Virus record (IMG/VR): IMGVR_UViG_2654587792_000032
Coordinates: 1 to 8,338 of that record
DNA from: a virus
Taxonomy: Duplodnaviria > Heunggongvirae > Uroviricota > Caudoviricetes
Direction: 5' to 3' (one strand)
Length of the DNA: 8,338 bases
The translations under genes and the position numbers were made by a program. Each line of letters starts with the position of its first letter. Positions within the stretch are counted from its first letter, which is position 1. Shown one piece after another: positions 1 to 8,338 of this stretch. Below the pieces are notes generated by a model, which was given only the letters and a program-made list of their open reading frames with translations, was not told the DNA's origin and did no database searches.

Positions 1-486
1 CACCTTTAGCCAATGCTCAATGCGTCTTTCACAGGTTCTTAAACTCCATTCCGGATGTGCATCATTCAGCAGTTCAGCCATTTTGCGCTTAGTCATCCCC
101 CGCCCCACATAACGCTGACTCAGAACATTGAGCAGCCCGGGATAACCTGCCAGTACTTCACCAATAACCCTGTCGATTATTAACGCCTCTGAATCGGTAC
201 AATGTGCCAGCCAGCTTTTTTGATTGCCGTTGATCATATCCCGCAAAAAAGCCTCAAGTTCAGGTTTGTCCAGACCCGCTTTTTTCATCCTCCGGAGCGC
301 CTCGTTAATTGCCGTTTTTGTCAGCTTTTTAGAGGTCAGTAATTGGTTGAACATATTTCCCGTCTTACCGTCGCCAATATACGACCAACGCCCCCACATA
401 CGCAGTTTCCCCTGGATCCAGACACTTTCCAGCGTTTTCAGGCGTAAATGCTCACCGCTTTTGCCTGTAATTTCCGGGTATATCAT
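1..486 (-). CDS. Phage late-gene antitermination protein Q family; C-terminal end runs off the window (at least 162 codons present)
   Basis: ATG at 486 (rc of cat 484-486). The frame stays open to position 1 (checked by hand for the last 40 codons: ...SQRYVGRGMTKRKMAELLNDAHPEWSLRTCERRIEHWLKV). The N-terminal LRMWGRWSY and C-terminal RYVGRGMTKRKMAELL segments resemble Q antiterminators of the DLP12/82 type as I recall them. It lies 8 nt downstream of rusA, the canonical nin-region order. Not in the ORF track because it is open-ended; the + strand ORF 224-568 is its shadow. Confidence 0.7.
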   Translation of the reverse strand, partial: MIYPEITGKSGEHLRLKTLESVWIQGKLRMWGRWSYIGDGKTGNMFNQLLTSKKLTKTAINEALRRMKKAGLDKPELEAFLRDMINGNQKSWLAHCTDSEALIIDRVIGEVLAGYPGLLNVLSQRYVGRGMTKRKMAELLNDAHPEWSLRTCERRIEHWLKV

Positions 487-494
487 ATTTATGC

Positions 495-860
495 TCACTC
501 ACTTTCAATTTTGTAAATCTTCACGCCCAGCCGCCCACCAGAAACGAGCTGACCGCGCACAATATTGATTTCATCAAACTGCTCGTCGTCTATAAGTAGT
601 CCGGCATGCGTAAGCGCATCCAGTGGTGCCTTCAGGATATTGTCCAGGTCGCGGCGGCGCTTATCCGGTGGCTCTGCAATAATCTTTATCGCCAGCCTTC
701 CGGACAGGTTTAATTTCAGCCACTGCTGGCGAACAATAAGTGCCACATCCCGGCGATAACGCTCACCGGCTTTTGACACAAAATATGTGCTGCCACGACG
801 TCGCCAGTAGGTGTTCACCGTCGGCGGGTAAGGCAAAACAAATTCTATGCGTTCAGTCAT
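495..860 (-). CDS. rusA: Crossover junction endodeoxyribonuclease RusA (Holliday junction resolvase)
   Basis: 121 aa. The PYPPTVNTYWRRRG segment, the DKRRRDLDNILKAPLDALTHAGLLIDDEQ block and the GGRL motif match the RusA family (catalytic Asp cluster). Stop TGA at 495-497. Confidence 0.9.
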   Translation of the reverse strand: MTERIEFVLPYPPTVNTYWRRRGSTYFVSKAGERYRRDVALIVRQQWLKLNLSGRLAIKIIAEPPDKRRRDLDNILKAPLDALTHAGLLIDDEQFDEINIVRGQLVSGGRLGVKIYKIESE

Positions 861-1916
861 TCATGCTTTCCACTTCAGGACACCCGAATTTCTCGCGTGC
901 ATTAAAAAACGAATCAGCAACAACAGCTGGCTGCCGTGTTTTTCTTCAAAATCTTTTACCCCGGCGTGCAGTTCGTTATGACATTTACGGCACAGCGGAA
1001 TAACAAACAAATCATCAGCCTTTGTTCCCATACCTCCCAGGCCATGACCAATGATGTGATGCGGATCATCTGCCTGATTACCGCACGTCATGCATTTCTG
1101 CGTTTTTACCCAGCGCGTGTATACAGGCATCTCTTCCCGTTGTGGTTTCTGGCGCTGGAGATACTGAGCCGGTGACTCCGGATCAACGGCAATGCTGACC
1201 ACCGTCTTTTCCTGTGGCGGGTTTTGCTGGTGGGCGTGAGGCAGCAGCGCAAGATTTTTTGTGCGCTGCTTCAGTATGCTGGTGGCGGTCTGCTCTCCCG
1301 GTACGATGTCGCTTTCGCGGTACACCGAGCGGATTTTTTCCGCACGCAATCCCAGAGAACGACGTAATACTGCCTCCGGCAATACGTCCGCTACCTGATT
1401 GCAGACCGCCCACCAGGATAATTCAGCCAGCGATAACTCCCGCTCCTGTGTACCGTTTATTGCGTGGCGGATGACGTCAATCATCCAGGATGTCAGGTTT
1501 TGTTGAGCAAGTTGCCCGAGTGATTCTGAAGTCTGGTCGCGTAACTGATTATCACAGTGCCAGCACAATACCATTGCGCCGGTACCGTAACGATGTATGA
1601 CGGTTTCACTGTGGTGGTAGTCACCATGAGGCCACTGGCAGGATTTAACATGGCGTAACAGCCAGTCAGACAATGCGCCAGCGCCGCCAGCAGCACGAAT
1701 CACCCGCTCATCGCTGAAAAATGGCAGTAATGATTTATCTTCCGCGAGCGGCTGGCGCACGGCAGGAACAGTTCCTGACGGCAGACCGCGCATGCTTTTC
1801 GGTTCCGGCTCCACCAGCACCCGGGGATTATGAAATACCTGCATGGATTCACGGCCCGGCTTAAGGACCACCAGCCCGAGTTCCGGTACCAGAACAGGTC
1901 GAAGTAATACCCGCAC
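861..1916 (-). CDS. ydfU: DUF968 (YdfU-family) lambdoid prophage protein with C-terminal Cys/His HNH-like motif
   Basis: 351 aa with GTG start at 1916. An SD-like GGAGG (rc of 1921-1925) sits inside the 3' end of the upstream ORF. The C-terminus CMTCGNQADDPHHIIGHGLGG...CRKCHNELH is a zinc-finger/HNH-like signature typical of DUF968 proteins. Its stop TGA (861-863) abuts the rusA ATG (858-860), implying translational coupling. Confidence 0.8.
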   Translation of the reverse strand: MRVLLRPVLVPELGLVVLKPGRESMQVFHNPRVLVEPEPKSMRGLPSGTVPAVRQPLAEDKSLLPFFSDERVIRAAGGAGALSDWLLRHVKSCQWPHGDYHHSETVIHRYGTGAMVLCWHCDNQLRDQTSESLGQLAQQNLTSWMIDVIRHAINGTQERELSLAELSWWAVCNQVADVLPEAVLRRSLGLRAEKIRSVYRESDIVPGEQTATSILKQRTKNLALLPHAHQQNPPQEKTVVSIAVDPESPAQYLQRQKPQREEMPVYTRWVKTQKCMTCGNQADDPHHIIGHGLGGMGTKADDLFVIPLCRKCHNELHAGVKDFEEKHGSQLLLLIRFLMHARNSGVLKWKA

Positions 1917-1917
1917 G

Positions 1918-2196
1918 TTACCTCCAGATACGCTGCTGGAATGTGCGGGACGGACGCGGTGGGCGTTCAGAGTAAGGCAGTCTGACTGAGATTATCCAGT
2001 GTCGGAAGTCGAAGCTGAGGTCTTTCTGAAACTCGTAACCACGTCTGCGGTAGTTCTGAATTAGCCACTCTGCCTGCTCTTCAGTACATGGATCATGCTG
2101 GAACCAGTCAGATTTGAATGCATGAGAACGCCGCCCGTGCCTGCTGGCAAAGACGGCTGAATTATCAGAATTGTGTTGTCTGGAATTTTGCGCCAT
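1918..2196 (-). CDS. Hypothetical small phage protein (92 aa), nin-region position
   Basis: ATG at 2196 preceded by GGAGA with 6-nt spacing. Stop TAA at 1918-1920 lies 1 nt from the GTG of the DUF968 gene. No family recognised from the sequence; it may correspond to the small ORF found next to ydfU in Qin-like prophages. Confidence 0.5.
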   Translation of the reverse strand: MAQNSRQHNSDNSAVFASRHGRRSHAFKSDWFQHDPCTEEQAEWLIQNYRRRGYEFQKDLSFDFRHWIISVRLPYSERPPRPSRTFQQRIWR

Positions 2197-2262
2197 CGGC
2201 TTTCTCCGGTGGCACAGTGTTACTCAACAGGGGTTCAGCCCTGCGCTGAATTGTAGATGAAT

Positions 2263-2571
2263 TCACTCATCTTCAAAAGCAGAAAAACCAGCCTTAATCC
2301 CAGCTTCTTTCAGAGACGGCAACGATGTGACAAATTCATTTGCACGCAAAATAAAACCATCCGTCACAAGCCCATCCACCAAATGAATTAACGCAGCTCC
2401 ACTCTTCCTTTGTTGAGACTGTAAACATTTAATACGGCAGTGGCTGACAATAGCGCCATTCTCAACGCGCACAGTATAGAGGCCATCCTCACTAAAAATT
2501 TCACGTAATTCTTCGATTTTCATCAACAGAATCCTTCCAGATAAATAGCACTCCCCCTGTTCGGGGTCCAT
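2263..2571 (-). CDS. Hypothetical small protein (102 aa from ATG 2571; 86 aa if the internal ATG at 2523 is used)
   Basis: Open frame with two candidate starts: ATG 2571 (purine-rich AGGGAGAAGAGGG upstream) or ATG 2523 (GGAAGGA about 8 nt upstream). No recognisable domain. It lies between the cassette terminator and the backbone ORFs. Confidence 0.45.
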   Translation of the reverse strand: MDPEQGECYLSGRILLMKIEELREIFSEDGLYTVRVENGAIVSHCRIKCLQSQQRKSGAALIHLVDGLVTDGFILRANEFVTSLPSLKEAGIKAGFSAFEDE

Positions 2572-2606
2572 CCCTCTTCTCCCTGCGCGCTACTTAAGTA
2601 TTTTTG

Positions 2607-2636
2607 ATTCTATTCTGGCACCGTCCAAAACTTCAA
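2607..2636 (-). promoter_or_regulatory. Candidate sigma70 promoter for the 2263-2571 ORF
   Basis: On the minus strand: TTGAAG (rc of 2631-2636), an 18-nt spacer, then TAGAAT (rc of 2607-2612). It sits immediately downstream of the 2645-2676 terminator. Sequence match only. Confidence 0.3.
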
Positions 2637-2644
2637 ACACGTTG

Positions 2645-2676
2645 AAAATAAAAACAAAAAACCCGCCGAAGCGGGT
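2645..2676 (-). terminator. Rho-independent terminator ending the 216-aa/368-aa operon
   Basis: Minus-strand RNA reads ACCCGC-UUCG-GCGGGU (perfect 6-bp GC-rich stem with a UUCG tetraloop) followed by UUUUUUGUUUUUAUUUU. It starts 5 nt after the stop of the 2681-3787 CDS. Confidence 0.8.
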
Positions 2677-2680
2677 ATAC

Positions 2681-3787
2681 TCAAACAATCTGGAAAATAT
2701 TTCTTGGATTTGTAATAGGTCTGTTGATGGAGAACAACTCACGAATTAAATCTTGGCTCAAGCCAGTTTTCATAAGAATTCTTAGCCAGGTTGCATCATC
2801 CAGCATTTCAATCGCCTCGGCCAGCATACCGGGTTCTTCAGGGCGCAAAAGTTCATCACCAGGTTCAACTCTCGTATACCCTCTGGAATTAAGATGCATA
2901 TAGCCAGTTCTTGCCTGTTCCTGGGTCAATAAGCCTAATGCGCTGGCTCGATAAATACACATTTTAAGGCTGATTTTCCATCTAAGTTTAAATTCAACCA
3001 GAGCATTCCAGTCGAATTGCTTACCTCGTATTCGTGGAAATTCTTTAATGAAAGATAACCTGGGAACTAATAAGGCGCTCGAAAAGTGATCGGCTTGTGA
3101 TTCCGTAAGTTTATCACCTGTCGTTATGCCCTCATGCATTACTAAATGCCCTAATTCATGACCTAAATCAGAGCGAAATCTACATATGCTTTTTTTAACA
3201 TTGTTCCTGATGATAACAGGCCTGTTATTGTGAACAGTAAAAGCATCAACACGATCATCGACTCCCGTAACATGCGCAACGATTACCCCTAAACTCTCCG
3301 CCAATTTAACCATTGATGATATAGGGCCAAGACCTAAATTCCAGGCACGGCGACAATCTTCTGCCACTCGCTCAATATCATTCGGAGTAAGTAATTCAGC
3401 CCCTGGGTGCTCCGGTATGTTAACGTCAGGAAATTCGATTTCACCTTCAACAGCAGAAATTATAATATTAAGAATCTCAGCCCTGGCCAATACACTATTA
3501 GTCAGCGTTTGAGTCCTGGACTTCTTACTCCGAAAATGGCAGACATCACTTTCCAGAGCGTATTTTCGTTCAGTAAAAAGAAAACTGGACTTAATCATAA
3601 GCGCTGAAGATATTAACTCAAGACATTGCTCCGATGGCCTGCACCCCTTCTCCAGTTTGCTAACGAATTGCTTTGTCTTGCCAATTTTTTCGGCTAACTC
3701 TTCACAAGAAAGCCCAACAGCCATTCTCGCTAGTTTGAGCTTATCACCCCGATACTCAGTGAAGTTATTCACCTGATGTTCCATCAC
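2681..3787 (-). CDS. XRE-family HTH DNA-binding domain fused to an ImmA/IrrE-type (M78, COG2856-like) zinc metallopeptidase domain
   Basis: 368 aa. The N-terminal KLKLARMAVGLSCEELAEKIGKTKQFVSKLEKG is a typical HTH_3/XRE helix-turn-helix. The HEXXH zinc motif HELGH falls at residues 210-214 (nt 3146-3160, verified by reverse-complement), followed by ESQADHF as a plausible third-ligand region. The start is GTG 3787 or ATG 3784. It overlaps the upstream 216-aa gene by about 20 nt. Confidence 0.85.
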   Translation of the reverse strand: MMEHQVNNFTEYRGDKLKLARMAVGLSCEELAEKIGKTKQFVSKLEKGCRPSEQCLELISSALMIKSSFLFTERKYALESDVCHFRSKKSRTQTLTNSVLARAEILNIIISAVEGEIEFPDVNIPEHPGAELLTPNDIERVAEDCRRAWNLGLGPISSMVKLAESLGVIVAHVTGVDDRVDAFTVHNNRPVIIRNNVKKSICRFRSDLGHELGHLVMHEGITTGDKLTESQADHFSSALLVPRLSFIKEFPRIRGKQFDWNALVEFKLRWKISLKMCIYRASALGLLTQEQARTGYMHLNSRGYTRVEPGDELLRPEEPGMLAEAIEMLDDATWLRILMKTGLSQDLIRELFSINRPITNPRNIFQIV

Positions 3788-4415
3788 TGCTCACATCCAA
3801 ATCTTTATCCTTCGTACGCCGACGAAGAGGCACCTTATTAATCTCCGCTTCGTCAGGGAGTGTGTTATAATCAAGAGGCATAAGCGGCATCGATGCTGTA
3901 GATTGATGAGAAACTATACTAATCTGAGCACCATAAGTATTAAATCCAACAAGAGCCACCTCCCAACGAGGCAGTGTGGACTCTAATTCACCATCGCCCT
4001 CTTCGGATAAAAAAGGCTCAGCTATGACTCGCCATGTAATATCTTGCTCAGCCTCAACATCACCAAACAATGAGAGTTGCTCATACTCTACTTTATTTCG
4101 ACGCAGACGATGTTTCTTTTTGGGGTTATTAATGCAATCTTTGGTAAATTGTAGCGGAACTTTATTTAAAGCAACTACATAGTCCAACCCCTTGGAAATC
4201 ATCTCAAGGCCAGGAATTGCATCTTCATTTTGAATAAGATGATTTCTGACCCAATCATAAGCCCTTACACCTTCAGACCAGTTGCTGTCTAATGCGTGCT
4301 TATGATAGTACAGCTGCTCAAGTACGTTAGCGATCTCCGCCAACAAGTGGCGAACATAGTTTTCAGCAAGATAAGGTTGAAATTCCCAACAAGGAGCTAA
4401 CTGATTTTCATTCAT
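3765..4415 (-). CDS. Hypothetical protein (216 aa), first gene of a two-gene operon with the HTH-peptidase
   Basis: A single upstream ATG at 4415. The long open frame has an acidic C-terminal tail (EEGDGELE...DEAEI...DKDLDVSSDGTSGE) and a basic patch KKKHRLRRNK. No family recognised. Stop TAA at 3765-3767 lies inside the start region of the downstream gene. Confidence 0.6.
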   Translation of the reverse strand: MNENQLAPCWEFQPYLAENYVRHLLAEIANVLEQLYYHKHALDSNWSEGVRAYDWVRNHLIQNEDAIPGLEMISKGLDYVVALNKVPLQFTKDCINNPKKKHRLRRNKVEYEQLSLFGDVEAEQDITWRVIAEPFLSEEGDGELESTLPRWEVALVGFNTYGAQISIVSHQSTASMPLMPLDYNTLPDEAEINKVPLRRRTKDKDLDVSSDGTSGE

Positions 4416-4450
4416 TTCAAGTTTCGCTTTTTTTAGAATTCGTAAACCAC

Positions 4451-4479
4451 ATATTTTCGCATTTTTCTATTTTTGTCAA
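4451..4479 (-). promoter_or_regulatory. Candidate sigma70 promoter for the 216-aa/HTH-peptidase operon
   Basis: On the minus strand: perfect -35 TTGACA (rc of 4474-4479), a 17-nt spacer, then an A/T-rich -10 AAATAT (rc of 4451-4456). It sits about 35 nt upstream of ATG 4415 and directly downstream of the hok terminator. No strong SD before the ATG. Confidence 0.35.
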
Positions 4480-4487
4480 CCAGACTA

Positions 4488-4512
4488 ATGCAAAAACCCG
4501 CCGAAGCGGGTT
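4488..4512 (-). terminator. Rho-independent terminator at the 3' end of the hok mRNA
   Basis: Minus-strand RNA reads AACCCGC-UUCG-GCGGGUU followed by UUUUUG. The 20-nt core AAAAACCCGCCGAAGCGGGT is identical to the terminator at 2656-2676. Confidence 0.7.
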
Positions 4513-4580
4513 AAGTGCGGGTGCGTTGAGGATGCCTGGCACATCAGAGGTGGCGGGAGATTACTCCCCCGCCGGGTCTC

Positions 4581-4736
4581 TTACTCCTCAGGTTCGTAAG
4601 CTGTGAAGACAGCGACCTCCGTCTGGCCGGTTCGGATTCGTACCTCGCAGAGGTCTTTCCTCGTTACCAGTGCCGTCACTATGACGGTTAAACAGATGAC
4701 GATCAGGGCGATTAACATCGCCTTTTGCTGCTTCAT
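4581..4736 (-). CDS. hokD: Hok/Gef-family type I toxin (51 aa small membrane toxin)
   Basis: Translation MKQQKAMLIALIVICLTVIVTALVTRKDLCEVRIRTGQTEVAVFTAYEPEE shows the hallmark Hok hydrophobic helix and the conserved C-E-V/L and Y-E motifs. As far as I recall it matches HokD/RelF of the Qin prophage. The in-frame upstream extension (ORF track 4581-4793, starting MLYTRR...) marks a mok-like upstream reading frame. Confidence 0.85.
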   Translation of the reverse strand: MKQQKAMLIALIVICLTVIVTALVTRKDLCEVRIRTGQTEVAVFTAYEPEE

Positions 4737-4905
4737 AGCCTGCTTCTCCTTGCCTTTCGGCACGTAAGAGGCTAACCTACGTGTGTAGAGCATAGATATG
4801 GCCTCAGATTAATGTTAAGCGTCTTGCCGGACGCGTAATGTTAACTGGGGCTTTTCTCTATCTGCCTTTGGTGTTGATGCCCGAGGCAGATAGCCTCAAG
4901 CACCC
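4737..4905 (-). promoter_or_regulatory. hok mRNA 5' leader with mok-like start region and fold-back (tac/ucb-type) elements
   Basis: The minus-strand leader GCUUGAGGCUAUCUGCCUC...GGCAGAUAG contains a 9-bp inverted repeat (plus 4858-4866 pairing with 4885-4893). The segment UAGCCUCUUACGUGCCGAAAGGCAAGGAGAAGCAGGCUAUG parallels the plasmid R1 hok leader as I recall it. Confidence 0.5.
4786..4866 (+). ncRNA. sok: Sok-like antisense RNA (approximate ends)
   Basis: On the plus strand, opposite the hok leader: candidate promoter -35 TTGCCT (4750-4755), a 17-nt spacer, then -10 TAACCT (4773-4778). This mirrors the R1 sok promoter arrangement from memory. The transcript would be complementary to the mok start region and extend into the 4858-4893 inverted repeat. 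Ends are inferred, not observed. Confidence 0.4.
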
Positions 4906-4911
4906 GCAGCA

Positions 4912-4940
4912 ATTCTACTTAACTACCGTTACCTCGCCAA
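4912..4940 (-). promoter_or_regulatory. Candidate sigma70 promoter of the hok mRNA
   Basis: On the minus strand: -35 TTGGCG (rc of 4935-4940), a 17-nt spacer, then -10 TAGAAT (rc of 4912-4917). The predicted start falls near GGGTGCTTGAGG, consistent with the 5' end of hok-family mRNAs. Confidence 0.5.
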
Positions 4941-5411
4941 TATGAAATCAATCAGAAAGGTGATCCATAAGAACAACAGCAAGACAATAAATTGCCATTA
5001 CAGCAGCAATAGCCAGCGCACATTTGAGAACCAGCACCACAACCTCCTGTATTGGACGTACACCAGTCCTGATAAATATGAGGCTGTCTCGTCAGTGATT
5101 CAATACAACTACTGGGTATAGTTTCTATGATTTTGTTCTGTGGAAATGGAAAACAGCAACCAGTCACCACCAGCACTTCTTTAAACATGCCAAGTCACAC
5201 GCAAGCCAACATTATAGTTCCCTTTGAGCGAGCAGATGAAGCTAGCAAAAATATTGATCACTTAGGATGCATTACTAACGTTGCTATGTGTTAACGAACA
5301 GGGAGTGGGTCATCAGCATAAATATTTATGCAGTAGGTTTCTTTTAGGACTAGATTAATCAAAAACATTTAGATAAAATTATAAAATCAAGAAATTGGTG
5401 GCAATTAATCT

Positions 5412-5441
5412 TTAATTGTGCCAGCTGAATTTCGTTATTAT
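5412..5441 (+). promoter_or_regulatory. Candidate promoter for the membrane-protein/methyltransferase operon
   Basis: -10 TATTAT (5436-5441) lies about 37 nt upstream of ATG 5479. The -35 is weak (TTAATT at 5412-5417, 18-nt spacer). AT-rich context makes this call weak. Confidence 0.25.
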
Positions 5442-5478
5442 AGAAGATTAGCTTTTTTTTGAGTGTTTGGAGAGTAAA

Positions 5479-6174
5479 ATGTTAGAACCACCAAAGAGTT
5501 ATAATGAAATGTTGCCTATGCTCCATAAGGCGACTTTTATTACTACATTTATATTTTACCTATCATTAGTCATTTATGGCTACATGCCATTGGTTGGCAT
5601 TAATGCCAAGTATATCCCCCCCGTTAAAGACTACGAGGAATTTATTAAATGGATATTAACCTTTGGCATACTACCAATTGCATCTTCAGTTTTTTGGTCA
5701 GTAATTAGTGGAGCTTTAGATCTACATAATAATGTAGCAAAAATTATTGGAATAAGGAAGATGTGGGATAGTCATTTAATTATTAAACCATTAGCAAAAA
5801 TTGCAGGCGTTACGAGAAAATTAACTACTGATGAATCTCACAAGGTAATGAGTAAACTGTATTACCCAGAAGTTAAAGAGTTAAAAGACAAACATTACGT
5901 TGAACTTTTCTGGAACAAAGTTTATTACTTTTGGGTTTTCTTTGAACATACAGTAATCGCATTTGTTACTATTTTAATAATAAGTATCGCCAAATTAACA
6001 AATATATTCTCTGTTACTGGCTCTTTAATTAATCTTTGGTTGTGGATTATTTCTCTTGTCGCATTTGACTTCCTTATTTTCATAGCATCAGTTAAACCAA
6101 GAACAGAAAGCCAAGTAAGACAAATACCTGATAGCAAAATAAAAGAATTCTTTAACAATAACAATATTTTTTAA
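5479..6174 (+). CDS. Predicted integral membrane protein with four hydrophobic helices (about 232 aa), uncharacterised
   Basis: ATG 5479 follows an SD-like TGGAGA (5468-5473); the ORF track starts at an upstream in-frame TTG at 5467. Hydrophobic helices lie roughly at residues 21-40, 57-81, 151-175 and 183-205, with a charged loop in between. Sequence is strongly AT-rich with A/T-ending codons. Stop TAA at 6172-6174. Confidence 0.65.
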   Translation: MLEPPKSYNEMLPMLHKATFITTFIFYLSLVIYGYMPLVGINAKYIPPVKDYEEFIKWILTFGILPIASSVFWSVISGALDLHNNVAKIIGIRKMWDSHLIIKPLAKIAGVTRKLTTDESHKVMSKLYYPEVKELKDKHYVELFWNKVYYFWVFFEHTVIAFVTILIISIAKLTNIFSVTGSLINLWLWIISLVAFDFLIFIASVKPRTESQVRQIPDSKIKEFFNNNNIF

Positions 6175-6186
6175 ACGAGGTTGATT

Positions 6187-6840
6187 TTGAATTACAAAAT
6201 AAATGGAATAAACATACGTTCAGAAAATGCAGCGAAACCGCACACTATGCCATCTAACTATCTCTGTAAACAGATTGAAAGCACTAATAAAAATGGCAAT
6301 GCCCTTGATTTTGGATGTGGAAAACTTAGATATTCAGAACAATTAGCAAATAAATTTGAAACTGTGACATTTTTAGATTCCAGAAGACAACTAGAAAGAG
6401 TGCAAATTATCAGAGGTGTACAAACTACGATTCCAGATTACGTGATAAATAACTATAAGAATGCTAATATTGTTTCTTATGAAAATATAGATAAAATAAC
6501 AAATCATTATGATTTCATACTTTGCGCAAACGTGCTTTCCGCAATTCCATGTGAATCCACAATTCACAAAGTCCTCAGTGCGATTAGAGAATTATTAAAG
6601 AGTGATGGTGAAGCACTGATTGTCAATCAATACAAAAGTTCTTATTTCAAGAGGTACGAGAGCGGTATTAAACATTTGCATGGGTATATATACCAAAACT
6701 CTCGCAATGCTTTCTACTATGGTTTATTAGATGTGGATACTGTAAGTAAAATATGCTCAGATAATAATTTAGAAATAATAAAATCATGGAGCAAAGCAGG
6801 TAGTTCATATGTGGTTGTTGGTAAACATATACATATTTAG
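6187..6840 (+). CDS. Small class-I SAM-dependent methyltransferase-like protein (about 217 aa)
   Basis: Rossmann-fold methyltransferase motifs are present: LDFGCGK (motif I, glycine-rich SAM loop), TFLDS (acidic residue at the end of beta-2), YDFILCANVLSAIP (motif II) and LLKSDGEALIV (motif III). The start is probably TTG 6187 (GAGG at 6177-6180, 6-nt spacing) or TTG 6181. It begins 7-13 nt after the stop of the membrane-protein gene. Confidence 0.6.
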   Translation: MNYKINGINIRSENAAKPHTMPSNYLCKQIESTNKNGNALDFGCGKLRYSEQLANKFETVTFLDSRRQLERVQIIRGVQTTIPDYVINNYKNANIVSYENIDKITNHYDFILCANVLSAIPCESTIHKVLSAIRELLKSDGEALIVNQYKSSYFKRYESGIKHLHGYIYQNSRNAFYYGLLDVDTVSKICSDNNLEIIKSWSKAGSSYVVVGKHIHI

Positions 6841-7154
6841 TTTATTTCAACAAATTATTAGAAAGAGTGATTTGCTTGTTAATTATTAGCTCGGCAGTGC
6901 CGGATCAACATGACCCTGCCACTTAGGCCATTGCCGGTTTACCTACTTTTGTAAGGTTCAGCATGAAGTTTTTATATACTCTTCCTAATATCAATAGTGA
7001 TGCTCGCTTATGTTAGCTGCTTCTTGTACATAGTAGCCTTCTCCGACAGTACTGCAATGAGCGGAGAGTAAAAGTCGATAAACAATAAGGAGGTTCACAA
7101 TAAATATTTCTCGGTGAAACTTTCAAAGCATTCTCTGTTTTGCTAAATCGACAA

Positions 7155-8054
7155 TTATAAATCAACAACATTTAGTGTTATATCAATATTATTTAGCCTT
7201 GCAATCTCTGATGAATCACTTGCTATTTTAGCTTTTAATTTATCAATATTAATCATATCTTCATGGCTTATATAAACCATATCACCTTGGTTAACTTTAG
7301 ATTTGTTCACTATGGCTTGAATAACAGACAAATCATCCATTACACCTCTCATAAATTTCACCATGCTTTGATCTTTGAAGTCAGATATCGATTTTGAACG
7401 TTGCTTACGTTGAATTGTTCCTTTTGTAATTACTTCATTAATTTCTTTTAAACCAGTGAGCATATCAGACAGACTGCCTTCGCAACTCATCCGATGTTTT
7501 ATTGCATTGCGATTAATAATATTGAGTATAATTTCGAGTGAATCTTTATCACTCCATGGATGTAATGATGTATAATCATGATGGCGTCGAATGGCGTCAA
7601 TCATATCCTGGACCATATCTTCATCTGCTTTATCGCAAAGTTCATTCACGAAATAGCTGGGGTCGATTATTTTACAATAACTTGGAGTTAGGTATCTTGA
7701 GGCTTTACAAAAAACAAAAATATATAAAGTAGAGTATTTATCTTTCAGACTCTCTCCTATTTCATTTATTTTCTCAAAAGATTCGATAGTTTTTTTAATT
7801 TTTGCTGGACTTGCATTCGTAGTAACTTGAACTGCTATCATGTTTTTATTATCAGCTAAATCAATGGCGGGAAAATTAACTTTAATCTGATTCATGTTTA
7901 CCAGTTCACCCATTTTCAGCGCGCGAAACATAAAGATGGTCAATGACTCAATTATTCTTTCCATGTCATGAAAGCCTGCCTGTTTGCGTTGCGCGATATA
8001 AAGCTGGAGTAGTGCAATATCACTCTGTAAGTTTCTAATAAGTGGATCAATCAT
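7155..8054 (-). CDS. Hypothetical protein (299 aa), AT-rich orphan, convergent to the methyltransferase operon
   Basis: ATG 8054 is preceded by AAGGA with 9-nt spacing. A continuous 900-nt open frame in AT-rich DNA, with a Lys/Asp/Ile/Asn-rich composition. No family confidently recognised. Confidence 0.6.
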   Translation of the reverse strand: MIDPLIRNLQSDIALLQLYIAQRKQAGFHDMERIIESLTIFMFRALKMGELVNMNQIKVNFPAIDLADNKNMIAVQVTTNASPAKIKKTIESFEKINEIGESLKDKYSTLYIFVFCKASRYLTPSYCKIIDPSYFVNELCDKADEDMVQDMIDAIRRHHDYTSLHPWSDKDSLEIILNIINRNAIKHRMSCEGSLSDMLTGLKEINEVITKGTIQRKQRSKSISDFKDQSMVKFMRGVMDDLSVIQAIVNKSKVNQGDMVYISHEDMINIDKLKAKIASDSSEIARLNNIDITLNVVDL

Positions 8055-8338
8055 AGCTAATAATCCTTTTCAATGAAGCTGGAGGTGTGTTTAACTATTA
8101 GTTAAATTTCTATTTTTATAGAAACAAGCTTTACAACTTCATCAAAGTTTCTCAAATCCTAATCCACTTTGCAAATCCACTAACCATGCTGAATGCTTTC
8201 TGTTGTTAAACATATCCGCTGCTGGCACCAAGCAGACAAACACACTAAGGAAGGTGCGAATAAGCGGGGAAATACTTCTCGGCTGACTCAGTCATTTCAT
8301 TTCTTCATGTTTGAGCCGATTTTTTCTCCCGTAAATGC

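Follow-up and report, generated by a model that had tools for sequence, protein, structure and literature searches.

A stand-alone SMEK-domain gene with a private C-terminal helical domain in an AT-rich prophage islet, a candidate single-gene phage-exclusion nuclease

The window analysed here is the whole of an 8,338-nucleotide (nt) stretch of tailed-phage DNA (Caudoviricetes; positions 1 to 8,338 of IMG/VR virus record IMGVR_UViG_2654587792_000032), and the gene under study lies at 7155..8054 on its minus strand and encodes a protein of 299 amino acids (aa). The reading that we favour, with a rough probability of 0.55, is that this protein is a stand-alone SMEK effector nuclease (Mrr-like PD-(D/E)xK fold) that acts as a self-contained single-gene phage-exclusion moron. 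The reality of the gene, its family, its fold, its conserved putative active site, its fixed two-domain architecture, the purifying selection on it and its autonomy from neighbouring genes are established by the results presented below.

Gene, family and two-domain architecture

An initial annotation had singled out a long open reading frame (ORF) with a credible Shine-Dalgarno sequence and an AT-rich composition, and each of these features was borne out. The frame has 299 codons; the AAGGA motif is placed 9 nt before the ATG, and the sequence AAAAGGAT is invariant in 7 genomic contexts. The GC content is 0.328 and the GC content at third codon positions (GC3) is 0.270, versus 0.51-0.54 in the adjacent phage genes rusA and DUF968. 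Its placement on the opposite strand, convergent with the adjacent plus-strand operon at 5467-6840, was likewise correct. That the gene is genuine and subject to purifying selection is clear, because the chance of 299 stop-free codons at the local composition is P ~5e-11, because relatives at 77-90% aa identity have exactly 299 codons each with 0 indels and 0 stops, and because the pairwise ratio of nonsynonymous to synonymous substitution rates (dN/dS) is 0.14-0.38, with both halves of the protein behaving alike. When disruption or loss of the frame in relatives was checked, the frame proved intact throughout that identity range.

The same annotation had called the product an orphan with no recognisable family, and this was wrong. 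RefSeq lists the identical locus as WP_000566848.1, 'SMEK domain-containing protein' (99.7% identical to the window protein). Pfam SMEK_N (PF21941) matches residues 10-121 with an E-value of 5e-23 (81.8 bits, cutoff 27), and NCBIfam NF033859 matches residues 5-95 with an E-value of 1e-30 (105.1 bits, cutoff 30). In addition, PADLOC PDLC02399 ('Aga_REase-PNTD1-PNTD2'), which models an Argonaute-associated protein of restriction-endonuclease fold, matches residues 8-153 (E 2e-21) and covers only model positions 9-150 of 463. With a 62-member family profile, the sole solved structure matched was PDB 26bh, the Mrr domain of the Kordia jejudonensis Mrr-APAZ protein of a prokaryotic Argonaute (pAgo) system, at residues 20-139 (E 8e-14); the window sequence alone reached the same structure with an E-value of 5e-9. 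A Foldseek search of the whole model against PDB and BFVD returned nothing at E <=1e-3, and a word-indexed search with the N-terminal domain alone gave just close relatives and fragments and was thus no guide to other architectures. The SMEK domain family is thus known and already annotated, and the 299-aa protein is therefore not categorically new.

The protein search yielded 84 relatives, mostly full-length at about 299 aa, from Enterobacterales, Pseudomonas, Vibrio, Burkholderiales, Xanthomonadales and Azospirillum, and a genome scan added members at ~30% identity in Campylobacterota, Verrucomicrobiota and Bacteroidota. One record is labelled 'Streptomyces sp. NPDC088196' (L016, NZ_JBFBIU010000052.1); it is a 3-kb contig of 41% GC whose SMEK protein shares 87% identity with that of E. 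coli, and it is almost certainly enterobacterial contamination in a Streptomyces assembly.

In the AlphaFold2 model (mean predicted local distance difference test score, pLDDT, 85.6), the N-terminal domain is predicted to run from a helix (31-45) through two strands (66-68 and 73-81) and a second helix (83-94) to two further strands (109-118 and 127-130), and predicted helices at 132-156 follow this core and precede the C-terminal bundle. The modelled domain shows the alpha-beta-beta-beta-alpha-beta core of PD-(D/E)xK nucleases. The search for such a fold that had been suggested for this ORF was therefore positive, both in the profile match to PDB 26bh and in the predicted core.

Among 53 representatives, reaching down to 17% identity, E36, D65, Q76 and K85 are conserved in 100%, N55 in 98% and T/S78 in 94%. 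These residues form the SMEK-family constellation E...(P)AID...Q-x-T/S...K, and the same residues align in PDB 26bh. It is worth noting that the third motif is Q76-V-T78, in which Thr/Ser replaces the canonical (D/E)xK lysine; D65 is kept, and the invariant K85 stands at the start of the next helix, a pattern that is identical in the Kordia domain. The site appears to be a variant of the PD-(D/E)xK type, a conserved putative active site that is apparently intact. The replaced lysine, together with the label 'regulator' that some sources give to homologs, could also point to an inactive or non-nuclease relic, that is, a structural or regulatory protein on a degenerate PD-(D/E)xK scaffold with a role outside conflict. 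We regard such a relic as highly improbable: the 'regulator' label has no stated basis, conservation of this degree over so wide a range of identity is expected of a working site, and the same constellation occurs in the Kordia domain, for which nuclease activity has been reported (PMC12205087).

The C-terminal domain is a predicted bundle of four helices (169-182, 195-210, 229-251 and 264-287; AlphaFold2), and D169, R182, A184, E192, G193, G212 and K221 are conserved among the same representatives. An exhaustive profile search with residues 157-299 against 1.84 billion representatives found 91 proteins, of which 90 are either fragments or proteins of 290-320 aa with the domain at about 155-300. 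The remaining match, a 977-aa protein, was considered as another architecture and rejected as a spurious 20-residue repetitive match. The domain is confined to one architecture, because only the same two-domain family and its fragments were found among the 1.84 billion representatives. A HEPN identity, which had been put forward for checking, was also rejected. The segment R182-N-A-I-K-H187 resembles an Rx4H motif, and R182 is conserved, but H187 is replaced by D, Q, N or C in many members; in addition, neither structure nor profile searches matched the domain to a HEPN fold or family. A regulatory, sensor or oligomerisation role is proposed for this domain.

Autonomy of the gene, its leader and its islet

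To describe the surroundings of the family, ORFs of at least 70 aa within 4 kb of the gene were clustered over 30 non-redundant diverse loci. The SMEK family was the only one common to all loci, and the family ranking second occurred in 3; no conserved partner gene or small ORF was found across the 30 loci. Similarly, of the Pfam and PADLOC families represented in the 107 proteins that lie first or second on either side of the gene, none occurred more than 3 times. The genes found beside it fall into three groups. The first comprises defence and toxin-antitoxin genes (LmuB with CTD7/MC3, AAA_15/AAA_21, AriA/PtuA-like ATPases, DpdF, Abi_alpha, SLATT_5, S_4TM, Mrr_cat, SymE and TacAT); the second comprises mobile-element genes (integrases, resolvases, relaxases, TrwC and RteC); and the third consists of ordinary housekeeping genes that border small islets. 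The gene is accordingly met in defence islands, integrative elements, plasmids and prophages. A gene of 219 aa downstream of the Pseudomonas homolog was considered as a counterpart of the window methyltransferase and was rejected, since the two proteins show no similarity and their equal length is coincidental.

The boundaries of what moves together can be read from the DNA homology between the window and SMEK-only loci in Pectobacterium, Enterobacter and the 'Streptomyces' assembly (L017, L006, L007 and L016), which runs from ~7152-7168 to 8227-8243. In the Pectobacterium and Enterobacter loci it begins at the stop codon and ends at 8233-8243, ~190 nt 5' of the start codon; in L016 it reaches farther, to 6979. 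The mobile unit is one gene with its own control region, because the homology with the SMEK-only loci spans the gene and its leader and stops at the stop codon. Two readings had originally been offered for this ORF, an independent single-gene accessory or abortive-infection (Abi) function and a third component of the neighbouring membrane/methyltransferase module. The former is the better supported, as the gene moves alone with its ~190 nt leader, has no recurrent neighbour and lies among defence, toxin-antitoxin and mobile-element genes.

The leader is conserved to about the same degree as the coding region, over 7 different genomic contexts; homologs at <=70% nt identity have only the coding region in common. 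A candidate promoter (TTGATG at 8145-8140, followed by N17-TCTATA or N19-TATAAA) makes it plausible that the leader carries a promoter of non-consensus type. In the RNAalifold prediction, 8188-8177 (CATGGTTAGTGG) pairs over 12 bp with 8063-8052 (TTATTAGCTATG), a segment that contains the start codon, and a hairpin forms at 8237-8215, on the border of the mobile unit. The Rfam scan of the window matched sok only and no family in the SMEK leader, and no inverted repeat suggesting a terminator was found between the convergent genes.

A leader that is conserved like its gene, and whose predicted pairing covers the start-codon region, might also belong to an addiction or stabilisation toxin, which would be held in check by an unrecognised antidote such as a small RNA or a translational switch in the leader and would serve to retain the mobile element and not to exclude phage. 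Such a toxin would fit the presence of the gene on many mobile elements and its position next to hok/sok and an RmrTA-like pair within one cargo slot of the prophage. However, the changes in the predicted pairing are one-sided only, with 0 compensatory changes, and neither an Rfam family nor a conserved small ORF or partner accompanies the gene, while the leader is not shared with the more distant homologs. We consider this explanation quite improbable.

The second reading of the initial annotation concerns the two genes that face the SMEK gene, which encode a predicted membrane protein and a class I methyltransferase. If the SMEK protein were the third component of a three-gene system, either of these proteins could, for example, protect against the nuclease or trigger it. 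Linkage is strong in E. coli, where 151 of 5426 complete genomes (~3%) carry the SMEK gene and the pair adjoins it in 151 of 151. Furthermore, the convergent three-gene cassette is kept at 83% nt identity on a RepO/helicase-type prophage backbone (L041) and at 88% nt identity on a Citrobacter koseri IncHI2 plasmid (L042), the islet boundaries 5313-8237 are common to both, and GC3 is 0.26-0.28 in all three genes. Co-occurrence fails, however, across the phylogenetic range of either partner. At 38 SMEK loci, including one in Pectobacterium at 83% aa identity, no homolog of the membrane protein or methyltransferase lies within 6-7 kb, and 8 loci (L043-L050) have the pair without SMEK, directly after ogr in P2-like prophages of Providencia and Enterobacter, beside icd, or on a relaxase-bearing mobilisable element. 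Moreover, E. coli TW14425 and 14EC047 (L051, L052) carry an insertion sequence (IS5 or IS1) that breaks the membrane gene, whereas SMEK is intact in both and annotated as a normal coding sequence, and the methyltransferase is TehB/UbiG-like and not DNA-methyltransferase-like. The close association in these cassettes stands, but dependence of one module on the other is unlikely. The most economical account is that two modules, separable because each is also found by itself, came together a single time in a 2.9-kb AT-rich islet that now moves as a block in Enterobacteriaceae.

The membrane/methyltransferase pair forms a conserved two-gene module of its own and is a candidate defence pair; the site after ogr in P2-like prophages is the known P2 defence hotspot. 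The membrane protein has no Pfam, NCBIfam or PADLOC match, and its family is confined to Enterobacterales.

The window itself is part of a Qin/DicA-type lambdoid prophage, in which dicC, ydaT, an O-like gene, DUF977 and SMEK follow one another in the same orientation. The SMEK gene points the same way as the early-right operon; what is inverted is the membrane/methyltransferase pair. Beyond that convergent pair lie hokD/sok, an RmrTA-like pair, DUF968, rusA and Q, with hokD/sok placed between the RmrTA-like pair and the AT-rich islet. The SMEK gene thus sits in a variable slot between the replication genes and hokD. The slot differs among related prophages: the RmrTA-like pair is present in the window and in O157:H16 strain 98-3133 and is missing from the otherwise collinear prophage of strain C7, and it represents a second variable cargo module of the slot. 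A megablast search with 7000-8338 hit 1831 E. coli genomes at a total of 8362 places, only 151 of which cover the SMEK gene. The surplus matches probably fall on 8249-8338, which holds the 3' end of the DUF977 gene (stop at ~8307) and the sequence downstream of it; this segment seems to be common to many lambdoid prophages and to mark the right edge of the islet.

Table 1. Positions of the SMEK gene, its parts and the other features of the window.
Feature	Position	Strand	Basis or remark
SMEK-domain protein, coding sequence	7155..8054	-	299 aa, ATG start, stop codon included; ORF list, full-length homologs, dN/dS, RefSeq
N-terminal SMEK/Mrr-type PD-(D/E)xK nuclease domain (predicted)	7587..8054	-	residues 1-156
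Family-private C-terminal helical domain	7158..7586	-	residues 157-299
Shine-Dalgarno AAGGA	8064..8068 (8068-8064)	-	sequence; invariant context
Conserved non-coding leader, travels with gene	8055..8243	-	homology with SMEK-only loci
AT-rich islet (membrane protein, methyltransferase, SMEK)	5313..8237		blastn boundaries vs L041, L042
Predicted membrane protein	5467-6174	+	235 aa
Class I S-adenosylmethionine (SAM) methyltransferase	6181-6840	+	219 aa
RmrT-like gene (PADLOC candidate pair)	3765-4415	-	E 5e-25
RmrA-like gene, helix-turn-helix (HTH) and IrrE/M78 peptidase	2681-3787	-	E 6e-105; overlaps RmrT-like gene
hokD-type toxin ORF	4581-4793	-	
sok antisense RNA	4731-4905		Rfam RF01794, E 5e-26

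Proposed function and competing explanations

Nuclease activity, regulation by the C-terminal domain and an anti-phage function are inferred by analogy. A triggered DNase is suggested because SMEK serves pAgo, Lamassu and STAND systems as a killing module that sensing or oligomerisation sets free. In the mechanism that we envisage, the N-terminal domain would cut DNA with little or no sequence specificity by means of E36, D65, Q76-x-T78 and K85, and the C-terminal four-helix domain would keep the nuclease off in the uninfected lysogen. The C-terminal domain would then sense an infection cue, which might be a phage protein or a nucleic-acid structure, possibly via oligomerisation, and this would turn the nuclease on. 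Finally, the superinfecting phage would be excluded by DNA degradation, with or without cell death. The cassette, consisting of the gene and its ~190 nt leader, moves horizontally among prophages, plasmids, integrative islands and chromosomal defence islands. The neighbours of the window gene in its prophage cargo slot, namely hok/sok and the RmrTA-like genes, speak for this role.

A narrower form of this proposal is possible and is put forward tentatively. The protein could be a minimal defence system in which a SMEK warhead is controlled by a 140-residue four-helix sensor of a phage cue; the leader would act as a translational switch that allows expression from the gene's own promoter in the lysogen and silences the gene on phage transcripts that read through it.

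Several points weigh against a phage-exclusion nuclease. PADLOC contains no model of the 299-aa protein as a defence system, and only the domain matched; no full-length homolog of the protein was found among the isolated phage genomes of INPHARED. The (D/E)xK lysine is swapped for Thr/Ser, so that activity hinges on compensation by K85, and the activity described in the sole biochemical study of a SMEK domain is weak. The C-terminal domain matches no family and no DNA-binding protein and in this respect gives no functional clue. A scan for consensus promoters and terminators around the gene did no better than on shuffled sequence, and no consensus sigma-70 promoter was detected upstream. The searchable literature describes neither this stand-alone combination of two domains nor the C-terminal domain itself, and queries by accession, by Mrr-APAZ and by SMEK with defence returned no study of the 299-aa architecture. 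Furthermore, a nuclease that lacks both a partner and an obvious antidote might just as well be an enzyme specific for a sequence or a modification.

This last point leads to a Type IV-like (modification-dependent) or otherwise substrate-specific restriction endonuclease, in which the C-terminal domain would read a DNA feature and the N-terminal domain would cut directly, with no abortive or sensing step. The Mrr-like catalytic fold agrees with such an enzyme, as does the fact that the gene stands alone, with no cognate DNA methyltransferase or antidote, which would be tolerable only if host DNA were not a substrate; the domain has moreover been termed a 'restriction endonuclease, misannotated as SMEK' (PMC10318531). 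However, a Pfam search of the window protein matched neither Mrr_cat (PF04471) nor a reader of modified bases (SRA, winged helix or YTH). The C-terminal domain, too, is a near-neutral, all-alpha bundle (isoelectric point, pI, 7.15) with no match to any DNA-binding protein, and in its known contexts SMEK is a triggered, non-specific effector. A restriction enzyme of this kind therefore seems an unlikely explanation, and the stand-alone effector nuclease is preferred.

SMEK is an emerging swappable warhead of Argonaute, Lamassu and STAND immunity, and all three need large sensor machinery. If the preferred reading is true, some 140 private residues controlling SMEK would make the simplest available model of how this nuclease is switched off and on, and the gene would be a compact single-gene addition to prophage-borne defences. 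Should the protein prove to be a restriction-like nuclease of the usual kind, the finding would be a modest one. Two candidate systems could conveniently be tested together in the islet, because its second module also occupies the P2 defence hotspot.

Comparison with known systems

The lambdoid exclusion morons provide a parallel in genomic setting. BstA is a prophage-encoded single-gene exclusion moron, and relBE occupies the same slot in K-12 Qin. Like the SMEK gene, these morons are AT-rich acquired cargo with their own upstream region and lie beside toxin-antitoxin loci, but relBE and BstA have no sequence or fold relation to the SMEK protein. A different stand-alone SMEK protein of 344 aa was seen on a plasmid of Bacillus subtilis SH1 (L054 3480-4514), among SPbeta-like genes from yoqW to yorD, and represents a Gram-positive parallel to the solitary prophage-borne gene.

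Among nuclease domains, those of the Mrr type and of Type ISP enzymes (E. coli Mrr, LlaBIII and AF1548) have a third motif of the form (D/E/Q)-x-K, in contrast to the Q-x-T/S of the window protein. DREN (DUF4365), the effector of SPARDA, has a motif of the Q-x-K type and goes from target sensing to non-specific DNA degradation (PMC10810196, PMC12205087). It resembles SMEK in being a PD-(D/E)xK effector, but it belongs to another Pfam family and needs APAZ and pAgo.

The Avs-like STAND NTPase Haur_5149 of Herpetosiphon aurantiacus plasmid pHAU01 (L053 2920-6237) shares with the window protein an N-terminal SMEK_N effector followed by a presumed sensor. It is a protein of 1105 aa in which SMEK_N (9-150) precedes a STAND-type AAA_16 ATPase and long TPR arrays, and the window protein has neither the ATPase nor the repeat sensor. 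The Haur_5149 gene is divergently adjacent to a reverse-transcriptase gene.

SMEK is also found among the N-terminal effectors of short Lamassu LmuA (PMC12663957), in which the same effector domain family serves as the killing module of an anti-phage system activated by oligomerisation. The window has no LmuB (SMC-like) or LmuC partner, and the window protein lacks the C-terminal region of LmuA. A complete Lamassu operon was seen only as a separate unit upstream of a homolog: on the Citrobacter koseri chromosome (L010 2109-6906), a SMEK homolog of 48% identity lies 200 bp downstream of a co-oriented Lamassu-type operon (CTD7, MC3 and LmuB_C) and is itself followed by an AAA_15/AAA_21 ATPase gene. 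The arrangement deserves mention in view of the use of SMEK as an effector in some short Lamassu LmuA.

The nearest relative of solved structure is found in the short-pAgo systems, in which the SMEK (= Mrr) nuclease is fused to APAZ. The KjAgo/SMEK-APAZ heterodimer cleaves DNA in a guide-dependent manner and also has a weak collateral DNase activity (PMC10810196, PMC12205087), and the Kordia system has been named SPARMA (bioRxiv 10.1101/2025.04.08.647717). Unlike these systems, the window has no Argonaute gene; the SMEK gene is flanked by DUF977 upstream and the methyltransferase downstream, neither of which recurs in the 30 loci. Kordia Mrr-APAZ (PDB 26bh) has a homologous N-terminal domain with the constellation E...NFPAIDLAD...A-x-Q-x-T...K, and in both proteins the nuclease domain stands N-terminal to a non-catalytic module. 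In Kordia this module is APAZ, a domain that the window protein lacks, and the PADLOC match of the window protein ends at model position 150 of 463; in place of APAZ, the window protein carries its private four-helix C-terminal domain.

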